Part shown: positions 37,265 through 49,480 of the stretch, in pieces
Position numbering within the stretch: the stretch's first letter is position 1
How the letters are laid out: each line of letters begins with the position of its first letter
Assembly: GCA_965248285.1 (NCBI GenBank)
Contig: CBDFJJ010000007.1
Location: 109,209 to 173,208 of the forward strand
Direction of reading: 5' to 3'
Origin: Gemmatimonadales bacterium
Lineage (GTDB): Bacteria > Gemmatimonadota > Gemmatimonadetes > Gemmatimonadales > GWC2-71-9
Length of the DNA stretch: 64,000 nucleotides
Made by a program: the position numbers and the translations under genes
The notes under the pieces: generated by a model
The model's database searches: none
What the model was told of the DNA's origin: nothing
Seen by the model: the letters and a program-made list of their open reading frames with translations, nothing else

Positions 37265-40200
37265 CTATCGCGCGAGCTGGAAATACATGCGGGCCGCCGG
37301 CCGTGGATCCGGGTAGACTCGAGCGGCGTCGTCACCGCTGTATACGACGCCGTTCTTCATCACATAGACGACCGATCGCGTGTTCCGAATGTTCACCAGA
37401 GGATTGTCGCGGAGCACAACTAGATCGGCCAGCTTGCCCACCTCGATCGACCCGAGCGCGTGATCCAGTCCGGTATGACGCGCCCCGTTGATGGTGGCGA
37501 TCTGAATCGTTTCCATCGGGCTGAAACCGCCCTGGGTGAACAGCTCCATCTCCCAGTGCGCATCGAGTCCCAGCATCTGCCCATGGGCGCCGAGCTGGAT
37601 CCGCACGCCCGCGTCGTGCAGCCGCTTGAGGTTGGCGGCGAGCTTCGGCGCGAACTGATCGTCCGGCCAGTAGTGCGTCGAACGCCGGGTGCGGGCGATG
37701 AGCTCGTCGCGCGTCGCGAAGTTCAGGAGCTTTGGGTTTTCCCACAACCGTTCCGACAGGTAAAAGAACGTTTCACCATACGGGCCGTCCAGCGTCACCA
37801 CCAGGGTCGGCGTGATCCCCGTCTCGGCGGCCGCGTGGATCCGCACCACGTCCTCGAAGAGCGGAGTATATCCCATGCCGTGCGCGATGCCCGTCGCGCC
37901 ATCGATCAGGCGGGTGAAGTTGCTCTGGGCATCCCCGCTCGGTTCCACCACCAGGTTCAGACCCTCTTCCCGGGCGGCTGTTGCCAGCATGTGACGGACC
38001 TTGCGCGTGCGCGTGAGGTAGTCCTTGAGCGCGGTGGCCCCGTGCGCCTTGTTGAAGCGCACGTGTTCGCGGGCGTCATCGATTGACTGAATCGCCCGGT
38101 ACTGCTTGGGTCTGAACTCCCTCGCGCCGTAGATCAGCGAGCCCACCGTGAACAGCCGGGGTCCCGTCATCGCTCCCTGCCGGAGCATGTCCGACACCCA
38201 GGCGTCCTTCCGATTGGAGCCCGCCACTTCGTACATGGTGGTCACGCCGTGCGCGAGGGCCGCGTGCAGCCTGGCGATTCGCTGTTGCAGGACATTGAGG
38301 CCGGAAATGCTGCTGTTGTAGTGGGCGTGCACGTCGACGATCCCGGGCATCACGGTATGGCCGGGAAGGTCGTAGACCCTGGCGTCCGATGGGATGCGGA
38401 CGGCAGGCCCGATTGCCTCGATCCGATTCCGGCGCACGAGCACGGTGGCGTTCTCCATCACCTCGCGGCCGGCGTTCATGGTGATCACCCGTACACCGGT
38501 GAAGGCGACGGTCGAAAACGGAACATCGACCTGGAATGGAACGGAGACGTCGATCCCGTGGGCCGGGCGCTGTCCTGCTAAGACGTCATCGAGAGATTTT
38601 TCGTAGAAATTTCCTCCGCGCGTCCAGTAGAGCGTGTCGCTGCTGGCCGCCCACGAGAAGAACAGTCCGTCTGCTTCGGCATCGACCCGCCTATTGAACC
38701 CCTGCTTGTCCTCCGCACTGATTGTGACCGCCTTGCCGGCAAAGTCGAACGGGGTGACGTAGGTACGGCTGTATTCGTGAAACGCAATCCACCGGGCATC
38801 GGGCGAGATGGCGGCGCCGATGCCATGCGGAAACCGATAGAGCGTCATCTCCTCCAGACCGTCGAGTCGAATCTTCTTCAACATCAACGTGTCGCCCACG
38901 AACTCCTGGAAGTAGACTCGATCACCATGCGGGTCGAACGACGTCATGGGTGGATACCTGGCTCGCCGGTTCGCGCTCAAGGAGACGTCCGTCACCTTTT
39001 GCTCTTTCCCATCCGGCCCAATGACCACCAGCTCGAATTCGGTCTGTCCTTCGAGGCGTCCGCCCATCCGGAGCGCGCCCGCCCCGCGGACAAACGCGAC
39101 CGACCGACCGTCGGGTGATACGGATAACGCTCCGTACTGAGTCGGCGTGGATGTCAACTTCCGCGGACGGCCCTCGGGAAGCGGGAGCGCGTAGATTGCC
39201 CCCATCTCATCGTCGCTCCACGACGCGTAGTAGAGCGTTCGGGTAGGCGGGTGGTACGCGGGACTGGTCTCGTGTGCCGCCGACCTTGTCAGGTTCCGGA
39301 TCTCGTTCCCAGATTTCAGATACAGATCGCCCAGCGTTTCAAACAGCATCCCCTGATCGGTGCGCTGAGCCCAGCGATGCGCCCGCGTTTGCGTCGGCCC
39401 CTCGGGAATCGGTACCGGGAACAGAATCGTTTTGTCGAGTTCCCGATGCACTCGAGCCCGGAAGGGGATGGTACGTATGTCTCTCGACTCCACGTTGACG
39501 GCGCGGATCTTTCCCCCGATGGCAACGAGCACCTCCGCCCCGCTCGGGTGCCAGGCCATCGTCGGGTAAGTTCCGTGATGATAGACTCTGAACACTTGCC
39601 GATCCCGGTCGAGCGGGGCCAGCACCCGCTCCTGGAACGTCTCCAGGTCGTGGAGGATGAGCTGGGACTGGAGATCGTCCCGGTGCACATATGCCAGGTA
39701 TCGGCCATCGGGCGAGAGGGCCGGATTCATGGCACCCCCCGGGCGGTCCAGGTACACATCGACCGTTCCCGTGCGCAGATCATATGTCTTGATCCGGGCT
39801 CCACTCGCGTACAGGTCGCCGTCGTTGTGCTCGTAGAACAGTTTCTGACGGGCCGCATGCTCCCTGAACACGTTGGCTGGTCCCCCACCTGGACCTGACG
39901 AGGTTCGAAACACCCCCAGGTCGAGCAGCTGCTGTTTGCTGCCGCGAACATGAAACTGATAGACCCTGTTATGAGAGCCGTCCGTGAAGACGGCGGCGTA
40001 GAGGTGGCGGCCGTCAGCAGACCACGTGCCCCGAAAGACCACGAGGTCGCTCTTCGAGACATTCTCCAAATCGCCGGTGGCTCGATCCAAGACCCAGAGA
40101 TCATCACTCCCGCTCCGGTCCGACGTGAACGCGATTTGCGTCCCATCGGGACTGTATTGCGGAAACATGTTCCACGAGCGCCCCGTGGTGAGCGCCGTCG

Positions 40201-40441
40201 CGTCTCCACCCCGGGCCGGCATCTGGTAGATGTGTCCCAAGAGATCGAACACGATCGTCTGGCCATCGGGCGACACGTCCAGGCTGATCCAGGTGCCCTC
40301 GGTCGCCATATAGTCCAAGACCGTGGTTTCCGGAGCGTGAGAACGCTCGACGTCCCACTCCTGACTCCACGCGCTGGCCGGCAGCGCGAGGGCCAATGCG
40401 GCGATAGCGGTGTTGAGCCGCGGAAGACCCAAAGTCGACAC
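37265..40441 (-). CDS. TolB-like beta-propeller plus amidohydrolase fusion protein
   Basis: ORF 37265..41071 trimmed to GTG 40441 (AAGAGG SD 6 nt upstream). This gives the signal STLGLPRLNTAIAALALALPASAWSQ, and the N-terminus then aligns with paralogue 52712..56065. Amidohydrolase motif: PGIVDVHAHY. Confidence 0.85.
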   Translation of the reverse strand: MSTLGLPRLNTAIAALALALPASAWSQEWDVERSHAPETTVLDYMATEGTWISLDVSPDGQTIVFDLLGHIYQMPARGGDATALTTGRSWNMFPQYSPDGTQIAFTSDRSGSDDLWVLDRATGDLENVSKSDLVVFRGTWSADGRHLYAAVFTDGSHNRVYQFHVRGSKQQLLDLGVFRTSSGPGGGPANVFREHAARQKLFYEHNDGDLYASGARIKTYDLRTGTVDVYLDRPGGAMNPALSPDGRYLAYVHRDDLQSQLILHDLETFQERVLAPLDRDRQVFRVYHHGTYPTMAWHPSGAEVLVAIGGKIRAVNVESRDIRTIPFRARVHRELDKTILFPVPIPEGPTQTRAHRWAQRTDQGMLFETLGDLYLKSGNEIRNLTRSAAHETSPAYHPPTRTLYYASWSDDEMGAIYALPLPEGRPRKLTSTPTQYGALSVSPDGRSVAFVRGAGALRMGGRLEGQTEFELVVIGPDGKEQKVTDVSLSANRRARYPPMTSFDPHGDRVYFQEFVGDTLMLKKIRLDGLEEMTLYRFPHGIGAAISPDARWIAFHEYSRTYVTPFDFAGKAVTISAEDKQGFNRRVDAEADGLFFSWAASSDTLYWTRGGNFYEKSLDDVLAGQRPAHGIDVSVPFQVDVPFSTVAFTGVRVITMNAGREVMENATVLVRRNRIEAIGPAVRIPSDARVYDLPGHTVMPGIVDVHAHYNSSISGLNVLQQRIARLHAALAHGVTTMYEVAGSNRKDAWVSDMLRQGAMTGPRLFTVGSLIYGAREFRPKQYRAIQSIDDAREHVRFNKAHGATALKDYLTRTRKVRHMLATAAREEGLNLVVEPSGDAQSNFTRLIDGATGIAHGMGYTPLFEDVVRIHAAAETGITPTLVVTLDGPYGETFFYLSERLWENPKLLNFATRDELIARTRRSTHYWPDDQFAPKLAANLKRLHDAGVRIQLGAHGQMLGLDAHWEMELFTQGGFSPMETIQIATINGARHTGLDHALGSIEVGKLADLVVLRDNPLVNIRNTRSVVYVMKNGVVYSGDDAARVYPDPRPAARMYFQLAR

Positions 40442-40503
40442 GTGGCACCTCTTGATGTCTGGAAAGGTAGGTCTGAGCCAGGCTTCGCAACCGAAAGCCG
40501 GCC

Positions 40504-40546
40504 GGGCCCGCACCGTCACCAAGGACATAAGGTTTAGGTAGTTGGC
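40504..40546 (+). repeat. ~42-bp direct repeat, copy 2
   Basis: GGGCCCGCaCCGTCACCAAGGACaTAAGGTttagGTAGTTGGC. Weaker similarity extends about 55 nt upstream (TTGATG..CAGGCtTCGC). Confidence 0.7.
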
Positions 40547-40669
40547 GCATCTGGCAACCCCTGATCGCCGGCCTGCGGGACGGTCACTGGCGTTGCCGGG
40601 CACCCCAGACAGCCCCGAACCAGCCATCCGGGGCGTCGGCGGCAACAGTCTAGGCCGAGGTGGAACCGG

Positions 40670-40845
40670 CTGTGGCGCGAGCCCGCCGGGCGGGTCGAGG
40701 CGATGCGCGCGAACGGCACCTCGCAGGGGTTCCATATGCAGCACCTCCTGTGGGCGAGAGACGATGGCGCGCACCTGAAGCGGTTTCGCCATGGCATGGG
40801 ATTCGAGATACTCGCGACTTTGGCCCATCCTGTATGCAGCCTGAG
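40670..40845 (+). pseudogene. Type B carboxylesterase gene, N-terminal fragment
   Basis: GVPYAAPPVGERRWRAPEAVSPWHGIRDTRDFGPSCMQP matches the family N-terminal signature (compare GIPYAKPPVG..W....A..YGP.CPQ). Homology stops at about 40845, where an AT-rich tract begins. A frame change upstream is likely. Confidence 0.65.
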
Positions 40846-41056
40846 AGACTATCTTTAAAGAGAGACTGCATAACCAGATTCTGAGCCCGTTACCGTAAGG
40901 GTAATCGGTAGCGAAGATTGTCTTACGGACCCGTTTGGCTGAGCAAAAACAAGTCGTAGTCGTGACAATTAATGATAGATTGGGTGCGTTCGGGTTTCTG
41001 GCGCATCCAGAATTAAAAATGAGAAAGAGCACGATAAAGTAAACCTGCCATGGTAA

Positions 41057-42751
41057 TTGAGTTCTGCGCACTCGAATCGCATTCGGCTGGACGATCGAAT
41101 CGGTAGTCTTGCTGGCAAATCCGTCGAATCCCAGCCAACCGGACCAGAGCGACGCTACCCAGTGAGAGCTGTCGAGAGCCTAACACGGCTCGTCGGAGCC
41201 GAGCACTCGACGATTCCCGAGGTGCTGGCGGCGCGCGCCAAAGCAAGTCCGGACCAGGTGTTTCTATACTGGAACCGGCGGCAGTGGACCTATGCACAGG
41301 GTCTAGCAGAGATCCGGCGGTTCAGCGGCTTCCTCGATGCCCACCTGCGTCCGCCAGAGCGACCCCGAGTCGTGACGTATCTCAGCAACCGACCCGAGGC
41401 GCTCTGGGGTTGGCTGGGGTCGGTGTGGAACGGGACGACGTCAGTGGCGATCAACCGAAATCATAAGGGAGAGCTCCTGGTGGACATGTTGGCTCGGTCG
41501 AAGGCCAGCATCCTGTTGACAGAACCCACCGCGGTAGCGGACCTGCCAGACCTGAAGGCGCTCGGCATCGACACCGTTGTCCTCACCGATGGTGACAGTG
41601 AGCGGATCTCAATCGCCGGGGTCTGCACTGTCCCGTTCCAACGGGCCATGGAGACGCCGGCCGGCGAGGCACACCGATCCGATCCAACGGCCATTGCCAG
41701 TGTGCTCTACACGTCGGGGACCACGGGGCGGTCGAAGGCAGTCATGGTTCCCCACAACCAGTACTGCCGCGGCGCGGCCCGTCTGGTGGACGCGTACGGC
41801 TGTGGTCCCGAAGATGTCTTTCACAATTGGCTTCCGCTGTATCACCTGGGCGGTCAGTTGCACATGACCATGGGCGCCGTCATCGCCGGCGGCACGGTGG
41901 CGCTATTCCCGACGTTTTCGCGGAGCCAGTTCTTCAAGCAAGTAGCCGAGGTGAAGGCGACGGTGATTTGTGGATTCGCCGCGATTCTCCACATGCTTTG
42001 GTCGCTGCCCGAGTCGTCCGGCGACGCGGACAACACCCTCTGCACCGGCATTATCGCGGGCATTCCGACGGAGCTGCACGAGCGCTTCGAGCAGCGCTTT
42101 GGGTTCACGGTCGCGGATCAGTACGGGATGACCGAGGCCGAGCCGGTGACCCTGCCGCGGCCTGATGTCGCCACCCCCCCGGGCTCATGCGGCTTTCCCT
42201 CGGACGACTTTCAAGTCGCGATTGTCGATGACCGCGGCTTCCGCCTGCCTCCGGGCTGCCGCGGCGAAATCGTGCTCCGACCGCGCGTCCCTGGCATCAT
42301 GATGATCGGCTACGAGGATGACCCGAGCGCGGAGCTGGAGGCATATCGCGGATTGTGGTTCCACACCGGCGACCTCGGCCGAATGGATGAACAGGGCTTC
42401 CTCTACTTCCTGGGCCGCCTGAAGAGCGCGATTCGGCGGCGGGGAGAGAATATCTCCGCCGTGGAAGTTGAGGCGATGTTGTTGAAGCACCCTGACGTCG
42501 CGGAATGCGCCGCCGTCGGCGTGCCTTCGTCGCTCGGCGAAGAGGAGATCAAGGTTGTGGTCGCGCGGAAGCCTGGGGCCCTGCTCACCGAGCCGGACCT
42601 TCACGCGTTCGCAGCGGAACGCATGGCCGCGTTCATGGTGCCGCGGTTCATCGAGATCCGCGACGCGCTCCCGAAAACGGACTTGGGCAAGCTGAAGACA
42701 GACGAGGTCAAGAACCTAGACGCGGCGACCTGGGACGCCCAGGAGCCTTGA
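41057..42751 (+). CDS. AMP-dependent acyl-CoA synthetase/ligase
   Basis: AMP-binding motif LYTSGTTGRSKAV; ..YGMTE.. and ..WFHTGDLG..GRLKSAIRRRGENI... The true start may be GTG 41162. Confidence 0.85.
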   Translation: MSSAHSNRIRLDDRIGSLAGKSVESQPTGPERRYPVRAVESLTRLVGAEHSTIPEVLAARAKASPDQVFLYWNRRQWTYAQGLAEIRRFSGFLDAHLRPPERPRVVTYLSNRPEALWGWLGSVWNGTTSVAINRNHKGELLVDMLARSKASILLTEPTAVADLPDLKALGIDTVVLTDGDSERISIAGVCTVPFQRAMETPAGEAHRSDPTAIASVLYTSGTTGRSKAVMVPHNQYCRGAARLVDAYGCGPEDVFHNWLPLYHLGGQLHMTMGAVIAGGTVALFPTFSRSQFFKQVAEVKATVICGFAAILHMLWSLPESSGDADNTLCTGIIAGIPTELHERFEQRFGFTVADQYGMTEAEPVTLPRPDVATPPGSCGFPSDDFQVAIVDDRGFRLPPGCRGEIVLRPRVPGIMMIGYEDDPSAELEAYRGLWFHTGDLGRMDEQGFLYFLGRLKSAIRRRGENISAVEVEAMLLKHPDVAECAAVGVPSSLGEEEIKVVVARKPGALLTEPDLHAFAAERMAAFMVPRFIEIRDALPKTDLGKLKTDEVKNLDAATWDAQEP

Positions 42752-42813
42752 GTCGCAAGCGGGTCACTGCACGGCCAAGGCCGGCCGTGGTCGCGAAAGC
42801 GCGGAGGTAAACT

Positions 42814-43587
42814 ATGAACCCATTCCGGCTCGACGGGCAAGTCGCGCTGGTGACGGGGTCGAGTCGTGGCATCGGGCGCGCTATAGCGTGCGCCATGGCC
42901 GACGCGGGAGCGGCGGTCGTGGTGTCGAGCCGCAAGCTCAAGTTGTGCGAGCAAGTCGTTCGCGACATCGAGACCCAGGGGGGACGGGCACTAGCGGTCG
43001 CCTGCAACGTGTCGCACAAGGACCAACTCGAGCGCCTCGTTGAGCGTGCCGACTCGACGTACGGCCGGATTGACATTTTGGTCTGCAACGCTGCCACCAA
43101 CCCGCATTACGGCCCAATGGCGGACATGAGCGACGCGGCCTATGAAAAGACGATGGCCGCGAATCTCCGGAGCACATTCTGGCTCAGTAACATGGTGGTG
43201 CCACGGATGGCTGATCGCGCCAGCGGCTCTGTCATTGTGATCTCGAGCATCGGTGAGAAGGTTGGCAGCAAGACGATCGGGGTCTACAATATATCCAAGG
43301 CGGCAAACTCGCAGCTGGTCCGGAATCTGGCGGTAGAGTGGGGAGCGCGGAATGTCCGGGCAAATTCCATCGCTCCCGGCCTGATCAAAACGGATATGGC
43401 ACGCGCGCTATGGGAAAGCACGACCATCAGGCAGTTCGTCGAGGATCACACGCCGCTCGAGCGAATCGGCACAACCGACGACGTCGCCGCCGTCGCGGTG
43501 TTCCTCGCGTCGCCGGCCGCGGCGTTCGTGACGGGACAGACCCTCGTGGTGGACGGCGGCTTCACGATCGCGGAGCTCGTGGGTTAG
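42814..43587 (+). CDS. SDR-family oxidoreductase
   Basis: Cofactor motif [13 protein letters not shown], catalytic [11 protein letters not shown] region. Confidence 0.85.
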
Positions 43588-43630
43588 ACCATGCGGGCCA
43601 CATTCCGGCCGACTCCAGAAAGGAGCAGGA

Positions 43631-44710
43631 ATGAACCGGGCTTCCGAGCGGTTTGTCGGCGCTGGCGAGGTTCGGGAGGGACACGGTTTCGATGTTCGGG
43701 CGCTGCAACGCTATCTCGCCGAGCACATCGACGGCTTCCCCAACATCCGGTCCTTGCAAGAGTTCCGGGGCGGACAATCGAACCCGACGTACCTGCTCCA
43801 CACCACGAGCGGGAAGTACGTCCTCCGGCGTCGCCCGCCCGGTCGGCTCCTCAAATCGGCGCACGCCGTGGACCGCGAATATCGGGTGACCCGCGCCCTC
43901 CACGGCTTGAGGCTGCCCGTGGCTCGCCCTCTTCTCCTGTGCGAAGACGACGCGGTGATCGGCACCGCATTCTACATCATGGAATTCGTCGACGGGCGCG
44001 TGTTCTGGGATCCGACGCTGCCCCAAGTTCGCTTTCCGGAACGTACCCTCGTGTATGACGCGATGAATCAGACGCTCGCCAAGCTACATAGCGTGGACTA
44101 TGCCACCATCGGGCTCGCGGACTTCGGACCGCACGGGGACTATTTCCAGCGGCAGATCTCCCGTTGGTCAGAACAATACACCCAGTCGGAATCCGAGCTG
44201 CACCCCGCAATGCGAGGCCTCATCGAATGGTTGCCGGACGCGATGCCTCGCGCCCCGGCGGAGACCTGCGTCATCCACGGCGACTACCGGGTGGATAACG
44301 CCATCTTCCATCCGACGGAGCCGAGGGTTCTCGCGGTCATCGACTGGGAGCTTTCCACGCTCGGCCATCCGCTGGCGGACTTGAGCTATCAATGCATGCA
44401 ATGGCGCATGCCCGCCGGAGCATTCGGGAGCCTGGAAGGTGGAGATCGAGCCGCGTTGGGCCTGCCGACTGAGGAAGAGTATGTGGCCGCCTATTGCGCG
44501 CGCACGGGGCGACCCGGCGTCGAACACTGGGATCATTACATCGTCTACAACATGTTCCGGTTCGCCGCGATCCTCTTTGGCGTGCGGGCGAGGGCCCGGG
44601 CCGGTACGGCCGCCAGTCAGCATGCGCTCGTCATGAGTGCGCAAGCGGCCCCCATTGCCGAGCGGGCCTGGGAGCTGGCGCGTCGGCTCGGGGCCCAGAG
44701 CCTCGCGTGA
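43631..44710 (+). CDS. APH-family phosphotransferase (ACAD10/11- and LvaA-type kinase fold)
   Basis: Brenner-type motif [13 protein letters not shown], then [16 protein letters not shown]. Confidence 0.75.
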
Positions 44711-45519
44711 TGGAAACCTCAACGGAGAAAGGTCCTGAGATGGAGCCGCTGGTACTGCGGGAACGACAGGGCGCGGTCGAGATCGTGACGATCAACCGGC
44801 CGCGCGTCCACAACTGCATTGACGCTGAGACTGCGCGGGAACTGAACGACCTCTTCGACGAGCTCGAGGGGGACGAGGAAGTGCGGGTCGTCATCCTCCG
44901 CGGGGCAGGGCCGTCGTTCAGCACTGGTCTCGACCTCAAAGCGCTCGCCCGCCAGGGCCCCGCGCTGATCGCCAAGGTCATCTTCGAAAAAACCGGCTGG
45001 GCCGGAATCGGGAAGCGGTTCTTTCCCAAACCTCTCATCGCCGCCGTGCATGGTTATGCGCTGGCGGGCGGGCTCGAGCTGGCGCTCTCGTGCGACTTCA
45101 TCATCGCGGCAGAGGATGCCAAACTCGGCTTCAACGAAGCGACCCTCGGACCGATTGCGGACGCGGGCGGTTGCTTCCGGCTGCCCAAGTGGGTGCCGCT
45201 GCCCCTCGCTCGGGAGATGCTCATGACGGGGAGACCGATCAGCGCGCAGCGAGCGTACGAGGCTGGCCTGGTCAACCACGTGGTGCCGCGCGAGCAGTTG
45301 ACTCCGGCGACGCTCGAAATCGCGCAAACCATCGCGACGAACTCGATCGTCTCGATGAGCATCATGAAGCGCCTCATCGCGGAGACCTTGGACCGGCCCG
45401 AGGATGAGGCGTGGACGATCAACGACCGCTACATGCGCCAATCGATGGAGACAGCGGCTTTCATGGAGGGACCGACAGCCTTCGCCGAGCGACGGCGGCC
45501 GGAGTTCTCCGGCCGATGA
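44710..45519 (+). CDS. Enoyl-CoA hydratase/isomerase (crotonase) family protein
   Basis: ORF 44494 trimmed to ATG 44710 (TGATG overlap with the upstream stop). ..VTINRPRVHNCID..RGAGPSFSTGLDL..VHGYALAGGLELALSCDF... Confidence 0.85.
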   Translation: METSTEKGPEMEPLVLRERQGAVEIVTINRPRVHNCIDAETARELNDLFDELEGDEEVRVVILRGAGPSFSTGLDLKALARQGPALIAKVIFEKTGWAGIGKRFFPKPLIAAVHGYALAGGLELALSCDFIIAAEDAKLGFNEATLGPIADAGGCFRLPKWVPLPLAREMLMTGRPISAQRAYEAGLVNHVVPREQLTPATLEIAQTIATNSIVSMSIMKRLIAETLDRPEDEAWTINDRYMRQSMETAAFMEGPTAFAERRRPEFSGR

Positions 45520-45535
45520 GGGTGCGGGAAGCTCC

Positions 45536-46789
45536 ATGAGGGGAAGAAAGGGATCGGTCGTCGTCGTCGTTCTGTTGCTCATGGCGCTGACGTTCCTGGG
45601 CCACTTCAATCGCATCGCGATCTCGGTAGCCGGCAGCGAGCGCATGATGGATCAGTACGGTATCGATCCGACCCGTATGGGTGTCGTGTATTCAGCGTTC
45701 CTCTTCACCTACGCCATCGCCATGATTCCCGCCGGCCTCCTCGCTGACCGGTTCGGGACCTGGCTCGCCCTCGGCGTGATGGCCGTCGGTCTCGCTGCCG
45801 GAAGTGTGGCCACCGGCGCCGTCGGCCTCACAGTGGGGGCCGCGCATGTGGTAGTCACGCTGCTCGTGGTGCGCGGGGTAATGGGAATGCTGTCAGCGCC
45901 ATTACACCCCTCAACGGCGCGCAGCGTCGCAGACTGGATTCCCATGCACCGCCGATCGCTGGTGAACGGACTCACACTCGGCGCGGCATTCCTGGGGATC
46001 GCTCTGACATATTACGTCTTCGGTGCGTTGATCGACCGCGTCGACTGGCCGGTCGCGTTCATGATCACCGCGGGTGTTACCCTCGTGGTGGGAGCGCTGT
46101 GGATCACCTTCGCAGCGGATATGCCGGCGGGACACCGCTCCCCGACACCCGCAAGAACCTCGCGCGCCGAGTGGCTCGCTCTGTTGCGCAATCGCAGCGT
46201 ACTCTTCGTTACCCTTGCGTACACCGCGGTTGGCTACTTTGAGTACCTTTTTTTCTACTGGATGCACTACTACTTCGACAACGTCTTGCAGATTGGGACT
46301 GAGACGAGCCGACTCTACTCGACCATCGTCACGCTCGCCATGGCCGGCGGAGTGATCTCCGGCGGGTGGCTCAGTGATCGACTCGTCGCCCGATGGGGAG
46401 CGCGCCGCGGCCGGGCCACCGTGCCTGTGGTCGGCATGATCGCCGGCGCAATCTTGCTCGTGGTCGGCGTTACCGCGGAGGCACCCCTCTGGGTGATGAT
46501 CTGGTTCAGCCTCGGGGTGTTCGCCACGACGGCCGCCGAAGCACCGTGCTGGGCCACGGCGATCGAACTGGGCAAAGCGCGCGGAGCCACAGCGGGGGGC
46601 ATCATGAACACCGGGGCCAACCTCGGTGGCTTCATCGCCCCGATTGCGACTCCATGGGTAGGCATGACGTTCGGCTGGCGGTGGGCGATTGGGCTTGGCG
46701 CCGCGGTGAGCCTGGCGGGCGGCTTGTTGTGGCTCGGAGTGAAGCCGGCGGAAGATGAGGTCACGATCGCAGAGCCGACGGTTGCGTGA
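45536..46789 (+). CDS. MFS transporter
   Basis: ORF 45404 trimmed to ATG 45536. About 12 hydrophobic segments. Confidence 0.75.
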   Translation: MRGRKGSVVVVVLLLMALTFLGHFNRIAISVAGSERMMDQYGIDPTRMGVVYSAFLFTYAIAMIPAGLLADRFGTWLALGVMAVGLAAGSVATGAVGLTVGAAHVVVTLLVVRGVMGMLSAPLHPSTARSVADWIPMHRRSLVNGLTLGAAFLGIALTYYVFGALIDRVDWPVAFMITAGVTLVVGALWITFAADMPAGHRSPTPARTSRAEWLALLRNRSVLFVTLAYTAVGYFEYLFFYWMHYYFDNVLQIGTETSRLYSTIVTLAMAGGVISGGWLSDRLVARWGARRGRATVPVVGMIAGAILLVVGVTAEAPLWVMIWFSLGVFATTAAEAPCWATAIELGKARGATAGGIMNTGANLGGFIAPIATPWVGMTFGWRWAIGLGAAVSLAGGLLWLGVKPAEDEVTIAEPTVA

Positions 46790-47274
46790 AGACGAAGCGG
46801 CCGGGATATCCACACGCTCGAGCGGTCCTGCACCCGGTGTTCCTGCCCTCCGGAGCCCCAGGGTCAGCAGCCTGTTCTATGAAAGCGATTGTCAAGGGCA
46901 GACTTCGTCTGCGCTGATTGGTCGGCGTTCTTTTTCCTGGCAATCAGCCCCACCTTTTTTGAGGGCGACTTCCGGTGCTTCCGGGTACGCCGGGCAGTCT
47001 TCTTCGGCATCATTCACCTCAATTCGTCTCCCGATCCGACGGAACACATGCAAGCGTCGTTGGTCGCGCGAGGCGAACCATAGTTCTATCTGAGACTCGG
47101 CACGGAGCCGGCCTGACGCTTCTTCTGGTTCTGCGAGGGGGCCTAGAGTTAGACGAGTGCCTCGGCGTGACTGCTGGCCGGGCAGACGGCTCTGTCGAGA
47201 CTGTCCCCCACACCGATGTCCTGGATCCTGGAGCCGTGGACGAGGTAAACGCACCCGCACCAGCGCCTCAGGAA

Positions 47275-48339
47275 CTAGGACGATTGTCGCGTCAACTGCG
47301 TCGGATCATAGGACGCTCCTGTCTTCCACAGACGTAGCGTGAGCGCGGCGATCTTGCGGGCGAGCGTCAGGCGTGCCAACTCCGGGCGCAGCCCGCGGGC
47401 CACTAAGGCTTGGTAAAAGTCCTGGAGCGGACCAGGCCGCGATGCGGCAGCGGTCGCCGCACCTTTGAACACGTCCTTCAGTACGCGGTTGTGATTGCGA
47501 TTGAGTCCCCGGGTCAGCGGGGCGCGGCGGCGCCGGACCGGCTGGCCCGCCACGAACGTATGATCGGCACTGGACCAGGTCACCACGGCCAGCCCCGCGT
47601 AGGCCCACAGATTCCGTTTGGTGCGAAAGCGCCAGGGCGTTCCCATCGTGGCCAGGAGCAGCGCGACCCGCACGGGTCCGTAGAACGGGATTGCCCCCAG
47701 TACGGACCACGCCGGATCGCGCTTGCCCTCGGCGATCATCGCGCCCTTCGCCTTGGGACGCAGCGCGCGCAGCACATCGAGTTCGGCGTAGAGCACCTCG
47801 GCCCGGAACCGCACCCCGCGCTCGGGGAGTTGCTCGAGCCACTGCACACGGGCCTTGGTTTGATACACGCCCGTGCCGGGGGTCGGAATCGCGCGGGCGC
47901 GGAACAGCGCTTTGATCCGGAGCATCACGCGGGTGCTGTCTTCGACCAGGTTTCGGTAGGTGCGGGTGAGTTCCTTCAGGTCGGCGCGATGCGCACTGCC
48001 GTGATAGACCGGACGCAGCCCGCCCAACCGCAGCAACTCGGACAGCCGGTCGGCATCGACCTGATCGCCCTTGTTGCCCTGGCGGGCCACCTGACGCGGA
48101 TCACAGACGACGACGCGATCGGCGAGCGGCGCGACCAGATCGTGCAACCACTGCGACTGCGTTCCCACCTCGAAGGCGACGTGCCGCGCCCCTCTCATGC
48201 CACGAAGGAACTCGACGAGCGACGGCCCGTGCGTCTCCAGGACGCTCCGGGCGAGCACCCGCCCGCTGTCATCCCGCACCGAGGCCACCGTGGTTGCCTG
48301 ATGGACGTCAAACCCCACATACTTCGTCGTGAGTTTCAT
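47275..48339 (-). CDS. IS110-family transposase/recombinase (DEDD plus C-terminal domain)
   Basis: MKLTTKYVGFDVHQATTV.. is the typical N-terminus. ORF 47275..48384 trimmed to ATG 48339 (AAGGAG SD 8 nt upstream). Confidence 0.8.
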   Translation of the reverse strand: MKLTTKYVGFDVHQATTVASVRDDSGRVLARSVLETHGPSLVEFLRGMRGARHVAFEVGTQSQWLHDLVAPLADRVVVCDPRQVARQGNKGDQVDADRLSELLRLGGLRPVYHGSAHRADLKELTRTYRNLVEDSTRVMLRIKALFRARAIPTPGTGVYQTKARVQWLEQLPERGVRFRAEVLYAELDVLRALRPKAKGAMIAEGKRDPAWSVLGAIPFYGPVRVALLLATMGTPWRFRTKRNLWAYAGLAVVTWSSADHTFVAGQPVRRRRAPLTRGLNRNHNRVLKDVFKGAATAAASRPGPLQDFYQALVARGLRPELARLTLARKIAALTLRLWKTGASYDPTQLTRQSS

Positions 48340-48420
48340 GAGAGCCGCTCCTTGTTGTGGTCCTTGGGTCTTGGTCGACTCCATGGTAGCAACAAGGGGC
48401 GTGCTTTCAATATGCGTTAG
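47275..48420 (-). mobile_element. IS110-family element (minimum extent; true ends not determinable from one copy)
   Basis: The family lacks terminal inverted repeats and only one copy is in the window. The upstream non-coding arm lies between the CDS and the 48421 palindrome. Confidence 0.5.
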
Positions 48421-48515
48421 ACGTGAGAGGTGAGAAGTGAGAGGGCCACCCGGCCGTCCCCTTTTTGGGGGTGGGGATGGGGGGCCGTCTCACGTCTCAC
48501 GTCTCACTTCTCACT
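48421..48515. repeat. Imperfect palindrome built from inverted arrays of GTGAGA heptamers around a C4-T5-G5 core
   Basis: The left arm reads cGTGAGA gGTGAGA aGTGAGA. The right arm reads TCTCACg TCTCACg TCTCACt TCTCAC. GTGAGAAGTGAG pairs with CTCACTTCTCAC. Confidence 0.8.
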
Positions 48516-48532
48516 ATCAACTGGAGGCCACA

Positions 48533-49480
48533 ATGCAATTACGCCCTACCGCCCTTCTTTGCCTGTCGCTGGCCATAATCGGCTGCCAGGCCGAACCGAT
48601 CGTCCGCACCGCGGATCCTTACTTGCGTGGGTTCACCGATGAGGACTTCCCGCGGGTCCAAGAACTGGCGGACGGGGTGTATTCCTACGAGGAGCTTCGA
48701 TCGGCTGGGGAGGAAAAATTCACCACGGTCAGCCTGTTTGTGGTGACATCCGCCGGCGTGTTGGTCGCGGACGGGCAGGGGAGTCTCGCCGAGACGCAGC
48801 GCATGGTCGATGCGATCGCGGACATTACCGACCAACCGATCACGCACGTCGTGATTTGCTCCGATCACGGAGATCACACCGCGGGGAACGCAGTTTTCCC
48901 GGAGGGTGCGATCTTTCTCGCGCATCCCACATCAAAGGCCAACCTAGAACAGAGCGCCGGCAATCCGAATCGATCGGCCGACGCGCCTCCGGTAATCCTT
49001 CCCACCGAGCTCGTCGAAGACGAGAAAGTACTGCAGCTCGGCGACAAAGAGATCCACGTACGATTTTTGGGACGCGCGCATACCGGTGGAGACCTAGTGG
49101 TCTACTTGCCCGCCGAGAGAATTCTCTTCATGAGCGAAGCATATCTCAATCGAATATTTCCTGCGATGCGTTCGGCTTACCCGTCGGAGTGGGTGACGAT
49201 GATCGAACGGGCGCAAGCCATGGACGTCGATGTTTTCGTTCCGGGTCACGGGTTCGTTGAGTCACCCGAGGTTCTCGAAGAGGAGCTGGAGACGCACCGG
49301 CGAGCGGTGGAGCAAGTGATCGCGGAGGCGAAGCGGTTGCACGACGCGGGCGTGAGCGTGGAGGACGCGGTAGAGCAGGCGCAGTTTGGTGATCTGGAAG
49401 GTTGGAGCCTGCGCGCGAGTCAGGGCCCGCGCGCGATTCAACGTGTGTACTTGGAGTTGAATGGAGAGCTATCTCGCTAG
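48533..49480 (+). CDS. MBL-fold metallo-hydrolase lipoprotein
   Basis: ORF 48437 trimmed to ATG 48533. Lipobox LAIIGC; metal motif CSDHGDH. Confidence 0.8.
   Translation: MQLRPTALLCLSLAIIGCQAEPIVRTADPYLRGFTDEDFPRVQELADGVYSYEELRSAGEEKFTTVSLFVVTSAGVLVADGQGSLAETQRMVDAIADITDQPITHVVICSDHGDHTAGNAVFPEGAIFLAHPTSKANLEQSAGNPNRSADAPPVILPTELVEDEKVLQLGDKEIHVRFLGRAHTGGDLVVYLPAERILFMSEAYLNRIFPAMRSAYPSEWVTMIERAQAMDVDVFVPGHGFVESPEVLEEELETHRRAVEQVIAEAKRLHDAGVSVEDAVEQAQFGDLEGWSLRASQGPRAIQRVYLELNGELSR

Follow-up and report, generated by a model that had tools for sequence, protein, structure and literature searches.

A five-gene operon in the genome of a Gemmatimonadales bacterium probably encodes, judging from sequence comparison, the degradation of a carboxylic acid bearing a 4-oxo or 4-hydroxy group through a known phospho-elimination route, that of Pseudomonas putida Lva and mammalian ACAD10/11, with the acyl-CoA dehydrogenase (ACAD) component acting in trans. 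The cluster is then an unremarkable representative of a known pathway whose genes are scattered, and its apparent ACAD gap reflects where the genes lie rather than how the pathway works chemically. The observations behind this reading are the domain families, the kinase and ACAD subfamilies with their intact residues, the hydratase residues, the operon structure, and gene co-occurrence; the substrate, and which way and at what point the SDR acts, we infer.

Gene content and organization of the cluster

We analyzed a 64,000-nucleotide stretch of contig 7 (C7:109209-173208, hereafter the window, with positions counted from its first letter). ORF and domain searches confirmed five plus-strand genes at 41057-46789 with the domains originally assigned to them; the cluster and its borders are as follows.

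40654-41056, plus strand: upstream junction, a carboxylesterase relic and then an AT-rich stretch (translation signature)
41057-42751, plus strand: AMP-forming acyl-CoA ligase (PF00501, E 8e-58; PF13193)
42814-43587, plus strand: classical SDR of the DHRS4-like carbonyl reductase type (PF13561, E 2e-69)
43631-44710, plus strand: ACAD10/11-type APH-fold kinase (matches to the mouse ACAD11 kinase domain and PDB 3dxp)
44710-45519, plus strand: crotonase-fold enoyl-CoA hydratase, ECH_1 (PF00378, E 8e-60)
45536-46789, plus strand: MFS_1 transporter of the anion:cation symporter (D-galactonate/ACS) type (PF07690, E 1e-44)
46874-48423, minus strand: IS110-family insertion sequence (PF01548, PF02371, NF033542)

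The intergenic gaps along the five genes are 62, 43, -1, and 16 bp, and we therefore read them as one operon. These gaps are too short to hold a small LvaB-like ORF, which bears out the original prediction that the cluster lacks one, and its statement that the window contains no ACAD also stands, the closest ACAD match on contig 7 (C7:232556) lying outside the window. The ligase start is ambiguous and could fall anywhere from TTG 41057 to GTG 41162. The crotonase start was refined to ATG 44710, giving a 1-nt overlap with the kinase TGA, and the MFS start to ATG 45536; the 417-aa MFS product is identical to a called protein in a public collection.

The grouping of these genes, as sequence comparison indicates, is more than chance, as the same kinds of genes are clustered around a relative of the kinase with 72% identity (P0002, on a 3.86-Mb metagenomic contig). 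There, the ligase, kinase, crotonase, and MFS genes have the same order and strand as here and are joined by an SDR gene, which follows the MFS gene, whereas the SDR gene described here lies between ligase and kinase. The P0002 cluster also includes an ACAD, known at ACAD family level only, that is divergent beside the ligase (ACAD / ligase-kinase-ECH-MFS-SDR) and occupies the position of the carboxylesterase relic in our genome.

The kinase belongs to the ACAD10/11 family

Matches, identity, and tree placement all group the kinase with ACAD10/11 kinase domains. Its match to the mouse ACAD11 kinase domain spans residues 13-352 (E 1.7e-85), PDB 3dxp is matched at E 1.6e-119, and the kinase tree places it within the family containing the ACAD10/11 kinase domains. 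Macrolide, viomycin, and aminoglycoside kinases matched only at E above 1e-3, and NCBIfam models for APH(3'), homoserine kinase, and thiamine kinase scored 19 to 26 bits; the kinase did not fall with aminoglycoside, choline, or homoserine kinases, the competing placements raised by the original prediction. LvaA is reported to be only 29% identical to ACAD10/11 (PMC9399607, PMC11342911), whereas the cluster kinase shares 41 to 48% identity with eukaryotic ACAD10/11/IBR3 and sits in the ACAD10/11-like branch. At a guess, a divergent "type A" kinase clade, whose members adjoin ACADs in relatives G010 and G025 and in L101, could be the LvaA-like one.

The catalytic HGD-x4-N is kept (aligned as IHGDYRVDN / VHGDFKLDN; D220, N225), as are the CoA-contacting Arg equivalent to R176 (FQRQIS / CKRQVS) and the DRE motif of helix alpha-C; D220, N225, and R176 are named as catalytic or CoA-contacting residues of the ACAD11 kinase (PMC12440821). 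On these features we propose that the protein may act as a 4-hydroxyacyl-CoA 4-kinase.

An ACAD11-type ACAD is encoded elsewhere in the genome

The same genome encodes exactly one ACAD11-type ACAD, on contig 12 (G000:C12:394022-395218), which matches mouse ACAD11 at E 2e-145. It carries GRLGPGRIHHCMR (R626, H634, R637) and LRLADGPDE (D753), and both its GRLGPGRIHHCMRT, the HCMR motif region, and its LRLADGPDEVH align with mouse ACAD11, where R626, HCMR (H634, R637), and catalytic D753 are the residues of phosphate elimination (PMC12440821). Conservation in this ACAD family is 77 to 83% across the best 120 matches. The neighbors of the contig 12 gene are unrelated, and DDE transposases adjoin it.

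Across 121 genomes of one class, kinase and ACAD were found together in 38, ACAD only in 2, neither in 81, and kinase only in 0, a table that overstates independence because of the relatedness among these genomes. Kinase and ACAD frequently lie at a distance from one another in this sample (3 Mb in G041, for example), and where genomes with a kinase locus lacking an ACAD were tested, the ACAD lay elsewhere in five of five. Among the 40 relatives of our genome, the ACAD was found in two only, and both also bear a kinase. In the genomes sampled, ACAD10/11-type kinases are thus always accompanied by an ACAD11-type ACAD but often at a distance, so that cluster-based annotation of lva-like systems misses parts. 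We infer that the contig 12 ACAD would serve the operon, a coupling drawn from co-occurrence only. The genome also has a second, likewise orphaned kinase, with a MaoC gene as its neighbor, and the partner kinases of the contig 12 ACAD's relatives are closer to it than to the window kinase (57% versus 48%).

The crotonase has the residues of an ordinary hydratase

Both catalytic Glu residues of the crotonase are present, in GGLELAL and FNEATLG with a spacing of 20 residues, which we take to correspond to Glu144 and Glu164 of rat ECH (textbook numbering), and the oxyanion-hole segment is present as SFSTGLDLK; the closest solved structures are EchA1 and EchA19. These residues bear on the earlier claim of a lacking ACAD step, with the crotonase processing the phosphorylated intermediate. 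An ACAD-independent pathway of this kind would have the crotonase itself act on 4-phosphoacyl-CoA (elimination, isomerization, or ring closure) and replace LvaC/ACAD. Consistent with it are the window without an ACAD, the overlap of crotonase start and kinase stop, which suggests translational coupling, the occurrence of ECH-kinase fusion proteins in the kinase family, and the 52 of 80 related kinase loci that have no ACAD11-type gene in the flanks examined. We nevertheless regard it as highly unlikely, given the intact ACAD11-type ACAD in the genome, the presence of that ACAD in 38 of 38 kinase-bearing genomes and of an unaccompanied kinase in 0 of 121, the nearest cluster (P0002) with ACAD as well as crotonase, and the canonical hydratase residues. 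The ECH domain of the fusion proteins, moreover, is just 29% identical to the cluster crotonase, and one such fusion adjoins a 3-hydroxyacyl-CoA dehydrogenase, a beta-oxidation context. To our knowledge, enolate chemistry at C2 has no direct way to expel a C4 leaving group, which speaks against a crotonase working alone; the narrower proposal that the operon functions without any ACAD, its crotonase being translationally coupled to the kinase and, for example, eliminating or closing a ring by enolate attack on C4, would give the crotonase fold a reaction new to it, and we judge this less probable still. The claim that the crotonase takes the place of the ACAD is therefore not supported.

Ligase, SDR, and transporter

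The top NCBIfam model for the ligase, PRK06155, is under its cut-off, and among solved structures it comes closest to oxalate- and feruloyl-CoA ligases. The top solved match of the SDR is DHRS4 (E 7e-56). It also shares 51% identity with the SDR domain that, in the fusion protein P0255, directly follows a kinase of the same family, a relative that fits SDR and kinase acting as consecutive steps, and we propose for it a putative LvaD-like role as a 4-oxoacyl-CoA reductase. The transporter scores 150 bits against TIGR00893, under cut-off, and is proposed as a candidate organic-acid importer. A carnitine (CaiC/CaiD-type) reading of ligase and crotonase was rejected, the model scores all falling far under cut-off.

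The operon might instead act on a different acid, if ligase, crotonase, and MFS formed an older module for another carboxylate and if kinase and SDR worked on another hydroxyacyl-CoA (branched, cyclic, or with a differently placed hydroxyl). The crotonase's closest relatives (59% and 50%) adjoin ligase relatives without a kinase, and ligase and crotonase may for this reason represent a more ancient unit dedicated to a separate substrate; elsewhere the genome contains a paralogous pair of ligase and ECH (G000:C12:224295-226895), and the weak CaiC/CaiD-type and EchA19-type model matches of ligase and crotonase, all under cut-off, point the same way. In some Burkholderiales loci, moreover, members of the kinase family lie beside ordinary ACADs (about 30% identity), Zn-ADH, and thiolase, and other hydroxyacyl-CoAs may therefore be among the family's substrates. 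Set against this are the retention in the kinase of the ACAD11 residues binding CoA and the 4-OH, the strict co-occurrence of kinase and ACAD11-type ACAD, and a gene content that parallels Lva step for step (PMC9399607). We consider a different acid unlikely, though worth keeping in mind.

Comparison with known systems and proposed pathway

The original assignment to a levulinate or 4-hydroxy-acid type of gene set is supported. Ligase (LvaE role), SDR (LvaD role), APH-fold kinase (LvaA role), and transporter are shared with lvaABCDEFG of P. putida KT2440 as summarized in the literature (PMC9399607, PMC11342911), the SDR/LvaD and ligase/LvaE matches being at fold-family level. Unlike the P. putida set, the operon has no LvaB-like gene, no LvaC within it, and no LvaR-type regulator nearby, and it has a dedicated crotonase. 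Mammalian ACAD10/ACAD11 combine the same kinase and ACAD types, and the catalytic residues are shared with the pair in this genome, but here kinase and ACAD are separate, non-neighboring genes located on two contigs, and the kinase sits in an operon with ligase, SDR, crotonase, and transporter. A stand-alone bacterial orthologue pair is known from Burkholderia pseudomallei (kinase Q63VL0 plus an ACAD), and ACAD10/11 and their bacterial orthologues yield 2-trans-enoyl-CoA, the substrate for the hydratase that is needed next (PMC11342911, PMC12440821). Halioglobus loci have the order kinase-ECH-thiolase-ACAD11 type.

In the phospho-elimination route that we favor, the acid would be imported by the MFS symporter and converted to its acyl-CoA by the ligase. 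The DHRS4-like SDR would then reduce 4-oxoacyl-CoA to 4-hydroxyacyl-CoA, a step that a 4-hydroxy acid as starting substrate would make unnecessary, and the kinase would phosphorylate the 4-OH. Phosphate elimination by the unlinked contig 12 ACAD would give 2-enoyl-CoA, which the operon crotonase would hydrate to 3-hydroxyacyl-CoA for general beta-oxidation. Such a pathway would extend the 4-hydroxy-acid phospho-elimination route to a Gemmatimonadota genome, and the compact ligase/reductase/kinase/hydratase/transporter cassette could be of use in levulinate or gamma-hydroxy-acid conversion, though the findings are unlikely to surprise a specialist.

Flanks and genome setting

Upstream of the ligase, positions 40654-40884 hold the relic of a type-B carboxylesterase N-terminus, whose stop-to-stop translation shows the signature ..GVPYAAPPVGERRWRAPE.., and AT-rich sequence covers 40850-41060. 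This AT-rich stretch is likely to be the operon's promoter region; a sigma-70 promoter and terminator scan gave no signal above shuffled background. Downstream, the IS110 element starts 84 bp past the MFS stop (transposase at 47275-48384) and delimits the cluster at its 3' end. Near-identical copies of it (99.6 to 100%) number at least 17 in the genome. The genome is rich in IS elements. No remnants of an ACAD, kinase, or SDR were found in the flanks at 40000-41300 and 46700-48700 (tblastn, E up to 10).

This setting could also fit a rearranged remnant, in which IS activity removed the ACAD and left the operon nonfunctional as a pathway. The IS-rich genome with its many copies of the flanking IS110, the carboxylesterase relic directly upstream, the orphaned state of both the ACAD (beside DDE transposases) and the second kinase, and the different flanks in a related strain are all in keeping with such a history. 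We find it very improbable, however, as all five genes have uninterrupted frames and retain conserved catalytic residues, and the contig 12 ACAD is intact; unlinked kinase/ACAD pairs are common in complete genomes, and separation of the two genes is therefore no sign that function has been lost.

In this Gemmatimonadota genome, the operon appears to have been acquired recently. The cluster was not found in eight genomes of the same genus. In a second sample, an MFS gene in the same 90%-identity cluster has near-identical DNA as far as the stop, and in the related strain an S15 peptidase, not IS110, lies downstream of the MFS gene.

Operon structure and pathway assignment

Judged from sequence, the five-gene cluster at 41057-46789 (plus strand) forms a genuine operon that belongs to the known phospho-elimination pathway for 4-oxo and 4-hydroxy acids. 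The products of its five open reading frames match an AMP-binding ligase, a classical SDR, an APH phosphotransferase, an ECH_1 crotonase, and an MFS_1 transporter. Reading of the junctions refined the crotonase start to ATG 44710, with a 1-base overlap with the kinase TGA, and the MFS start to ATG 45536; the 417-aa MFS product is identical to a called protein in a public collection, and the ligase start is uncertain (TTG 41057 to GTG 41162). Intergenic gaps of 62, 43, -1, and 16 bp indicate a single operon and are too short to hold a small LvaB-like gene. We found no acyl-CoA dehydrogenase (ACAD) in the window, and the original prediction was right both in describing five packed plus-strand genes and in describing them as free of ACAD and LvaB-like genes.

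Among all solved structures, the two that the kinase (43631-44710, plus strand) matches best are 3dxp, a stand-alone protein of the Cupriavidus type (E 1.6e-119), and the mouse ACAD11 kinase domain (residues 13-352, E 1.7e-85); E values for macrolide, viomycin, and aminoglycoside kinases exceed 1e-3. It is 41 to 48% identical over the domain to eukaryotic ACAD10, ACAD11, and plant IBR3, and it keeps the catalytic HGD-x4-N motif, the DRE motif, and the CoA-contacting Arg (R176 of ACAD11, among the kinase residues named in PMC12440821). In a maximum-likelihood tree of 46 kinases it pairs with P0002, a 72% identical kinase from a metagenomic contig (support 100), within the family that holds the eukaryotic ACAD10/11/IBR3 domains and Burkholderia loci; the one further APH in this genome with a good score attaches through a branch of 5.8 substitutions per site. 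Tree and structure matches alike thus group the window kinase with the ACAD10/11/IBR3 family and not with unrelated APH subfamilies, the placement that the original prediction had singled out for checking. LvaA of the Pseudomonas putida levulinate (Lva) pathway shares just 29% identity with the kinase domains of ACAD10/11, and a closer Burkholderia pseudomallei kinase can substitute for the ACAD10 kinase domain in vitro (Paquay et al., PMC11342911). By homology, the window kinase is a member of this branch closer to ACAD10/11, that of the B. pseudomallei kinase.

Among solved structures the SDR comes closest to DHRS4, a carbonyl reductase, and it shares 51% identity with the SDR domain that directly follows a kinase of the window-kinase family in the fusion protein P0255. 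This likeness fits a scheme in which SDR and kinase would take consecutive steps, as LvaD and then LvaA do in the Lva pathway (PMC9399607). The transporter is of the anion:cation symporter type, with a score below the model cutoff.

An unlinked ACAD and the role of the crotonase

We searched the whole assembly (6.45 Mb, 13 contigs) with an ACAD from a Halioglobus cluster (kinase, ECH, thiolase, ACAD), a probe whose best solved matches include ACAD11. Exactly one ACAD11-type ACAD was found, on contig 12 (394022-395218); the next ACAD matches reach at most 30% identity. It matches mouse ACAD11 with E 2e-145 and carries GRLGPGRIHHCMR and LRLADGPDE, equivalent to R626, H634, R637, and the catalytic D753, which are needed for phosphate elimination (Rashan et al., PMC12440821). 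Its neighbors are unrelated (a saccharopine-dehydrogenase-like gene, peptidases, a 23S IVS protein, and DDE transposases); its closest relatives (81 to 82% identity) each have a kinase immediately downstream that overlaps them by 4 bp. Hence the genome does encode the ACAD step, unlinked to the operon, and the enzyme would be supplied in trans.

Separation of the kinase and ACAD genes is commonplace. Of 80 loci whose kinases show 51 to 58% identity, 28 have an ACAD11-type gene no more than 10 kb from the kinase (immediately next to it in 11), and none turned up in the fetched flanks of the other 52; all five genomes without a linked ACAD that were searched whole have one elsewhere. In 121 genomes sampled evenly from one class (cutoffs, E 1e-60 or better for the kinase and 1e-100 or better for the ACAD), the kinase occurs in 38 and the ACAD in 40, all 38 kinase genomes lie within the 40, neither gene occurs in 81, and none has the kinase without the ACAD; in several single-contig genomes the two are 0.2 to 3 Mb apart. 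Of our genome's 40 relatives, only two, G010 and G025, yielded the ACAD, and each also has a kinase. Because the genomes counted are related, these counts are not independent, yet a kinase that depends on the ACAD would be expected to give this pattern.

The crotonase had been proposed to handle the phosphorylated intermediate in place of an ACAD. We find no support for this replacement: the genome encodes an ACAD with the phosphate-elimination residues, and the closest cluster, that of P0002, has an ACAD, divergently transcribed beside the ligase, as well as a crotonase, which is therefore no substitute for ACAD there. In the window crotonase the oxyanion-hole segment is present and the two catalytic glutamates (GGLELAL, FNEATLG) lie 20 residues apart, the canonical spacing; the nearest solved relatives of this enzyme are the mycobacterial hydratases EchA1 and EchA19. 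The product released by ACAD10/11 and by the bacterial pair is 2-trans-enoyl-CoA, whose hydration is only partial and unexplained (PMC11342911), so a hydratase is the expected next enzyme; the crotonase most likely carries out ordinary hydration of 2-enoyl-CoA. ECH-kinase fusion proteins also exist, one of them after a 3-hydroxyacyl-CoA dehydrogenase; their ECH domain is 29% identical to the window crotonase.

A different substrate for the operon stays a live alternative, supported mainly by signs that ligase and crotonase form a module of their own. Close crotonase relatives are few: representatives share 60, 51, and 47% identity, and below them come generic crotonases at ∼40%. The two closest adjoin ligases related to that of the window, with no kinase. 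Contig 12 echoes this pairing with a paralogous crotonase (41%) and divergent ligase (46%) at 224295-226895; a further ligase paralogue (43%) lies at 233386-234972.

Flanks and origin of the operon

Two features border the operon:
40654-40884, plus strand, type-B carboxylesterase relic directly upstream of the ligase, N-terminal signature ..GVPYAAPPVGERRWRAPE..
46874-48423, IS110-family element of ∼1550 bp, starting 84 bp past the MFS stop

The IS110-family element has at least 17 copies at 99.6 to 100% identity over 8 contigs, which points to recent IS expansion in this genome. A related strain has near-identical DNA as far as the MFS stop, followed by an S15 peptidase gene. The carboxylesterase relic has no start and no intact frame, and a long minus-strand open reading frame (37265-41071) is probably over-extended across it; an AT-rich stretch also lies upstream of the operon. 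Searches of eight same-genus genomes did not find the kinase. One protein in a 90%-identity protein cluster carries the label Gemmatimonadota. Together with a second kinase that has no ACAD found near it (locus L003), these observations suggest that the operon is a cassette which this rearranging genome acquired.

Variants of the kinase family

The second ACAD10/11-type kinase (contig 7, 16471-17547; L003:9469-10548, minus strand) is 48% identical and lies 136 kb from the cluster, adjoining a MaoC-type dehydratase amid peptidase and beta-lactamase-family genes; MaoC also adjoins the kinase in a Rhodoblastus locus (L069). Tandem kinases of the window-kinase family occur in Sneathiella, Parvibaculaceae, and other Alphaproteobacteria (L021-L028, L036, L039, L041, L042, L047, L048), one nearer the window kinase and the other nearer the second kinase, with an ACAD11-type ACAD then on the opposite strand 2.5 to 4 kb off. 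The two paralogues of our genome may derive from such a tandem.

In Burkholderiales MAGs (L009, L010, L012, L015, L017) this kinase family sits in another type of cluster: kinase, then Zn-dependent alcohol dehydrogenase, ligase, ordinary ACAD (∼30% identity to the ACAD11 type), and thiolase. Fusion proteins in the family (P0241, P0242/P0243, P0255, P0252, P0258, P0247) join the kinase to acyl-CoA ligase, crotonase, SDR, patatin lipase, histidine phosphatase, or a nitronate-monooxygenase-like domain, and some could be gene-calling read-throughs. G010 (contig 154, L099/L004; same family as our genome) and G025 (contig 1, L100/L006; same order) have an operon of SDR, ACAD11-type ACAD, SDR, and kinase; their kinases form a divergent type that shares 34% identity with the window kinase, sits on a long branch in the tree, and is possibly an LvaA-like form.
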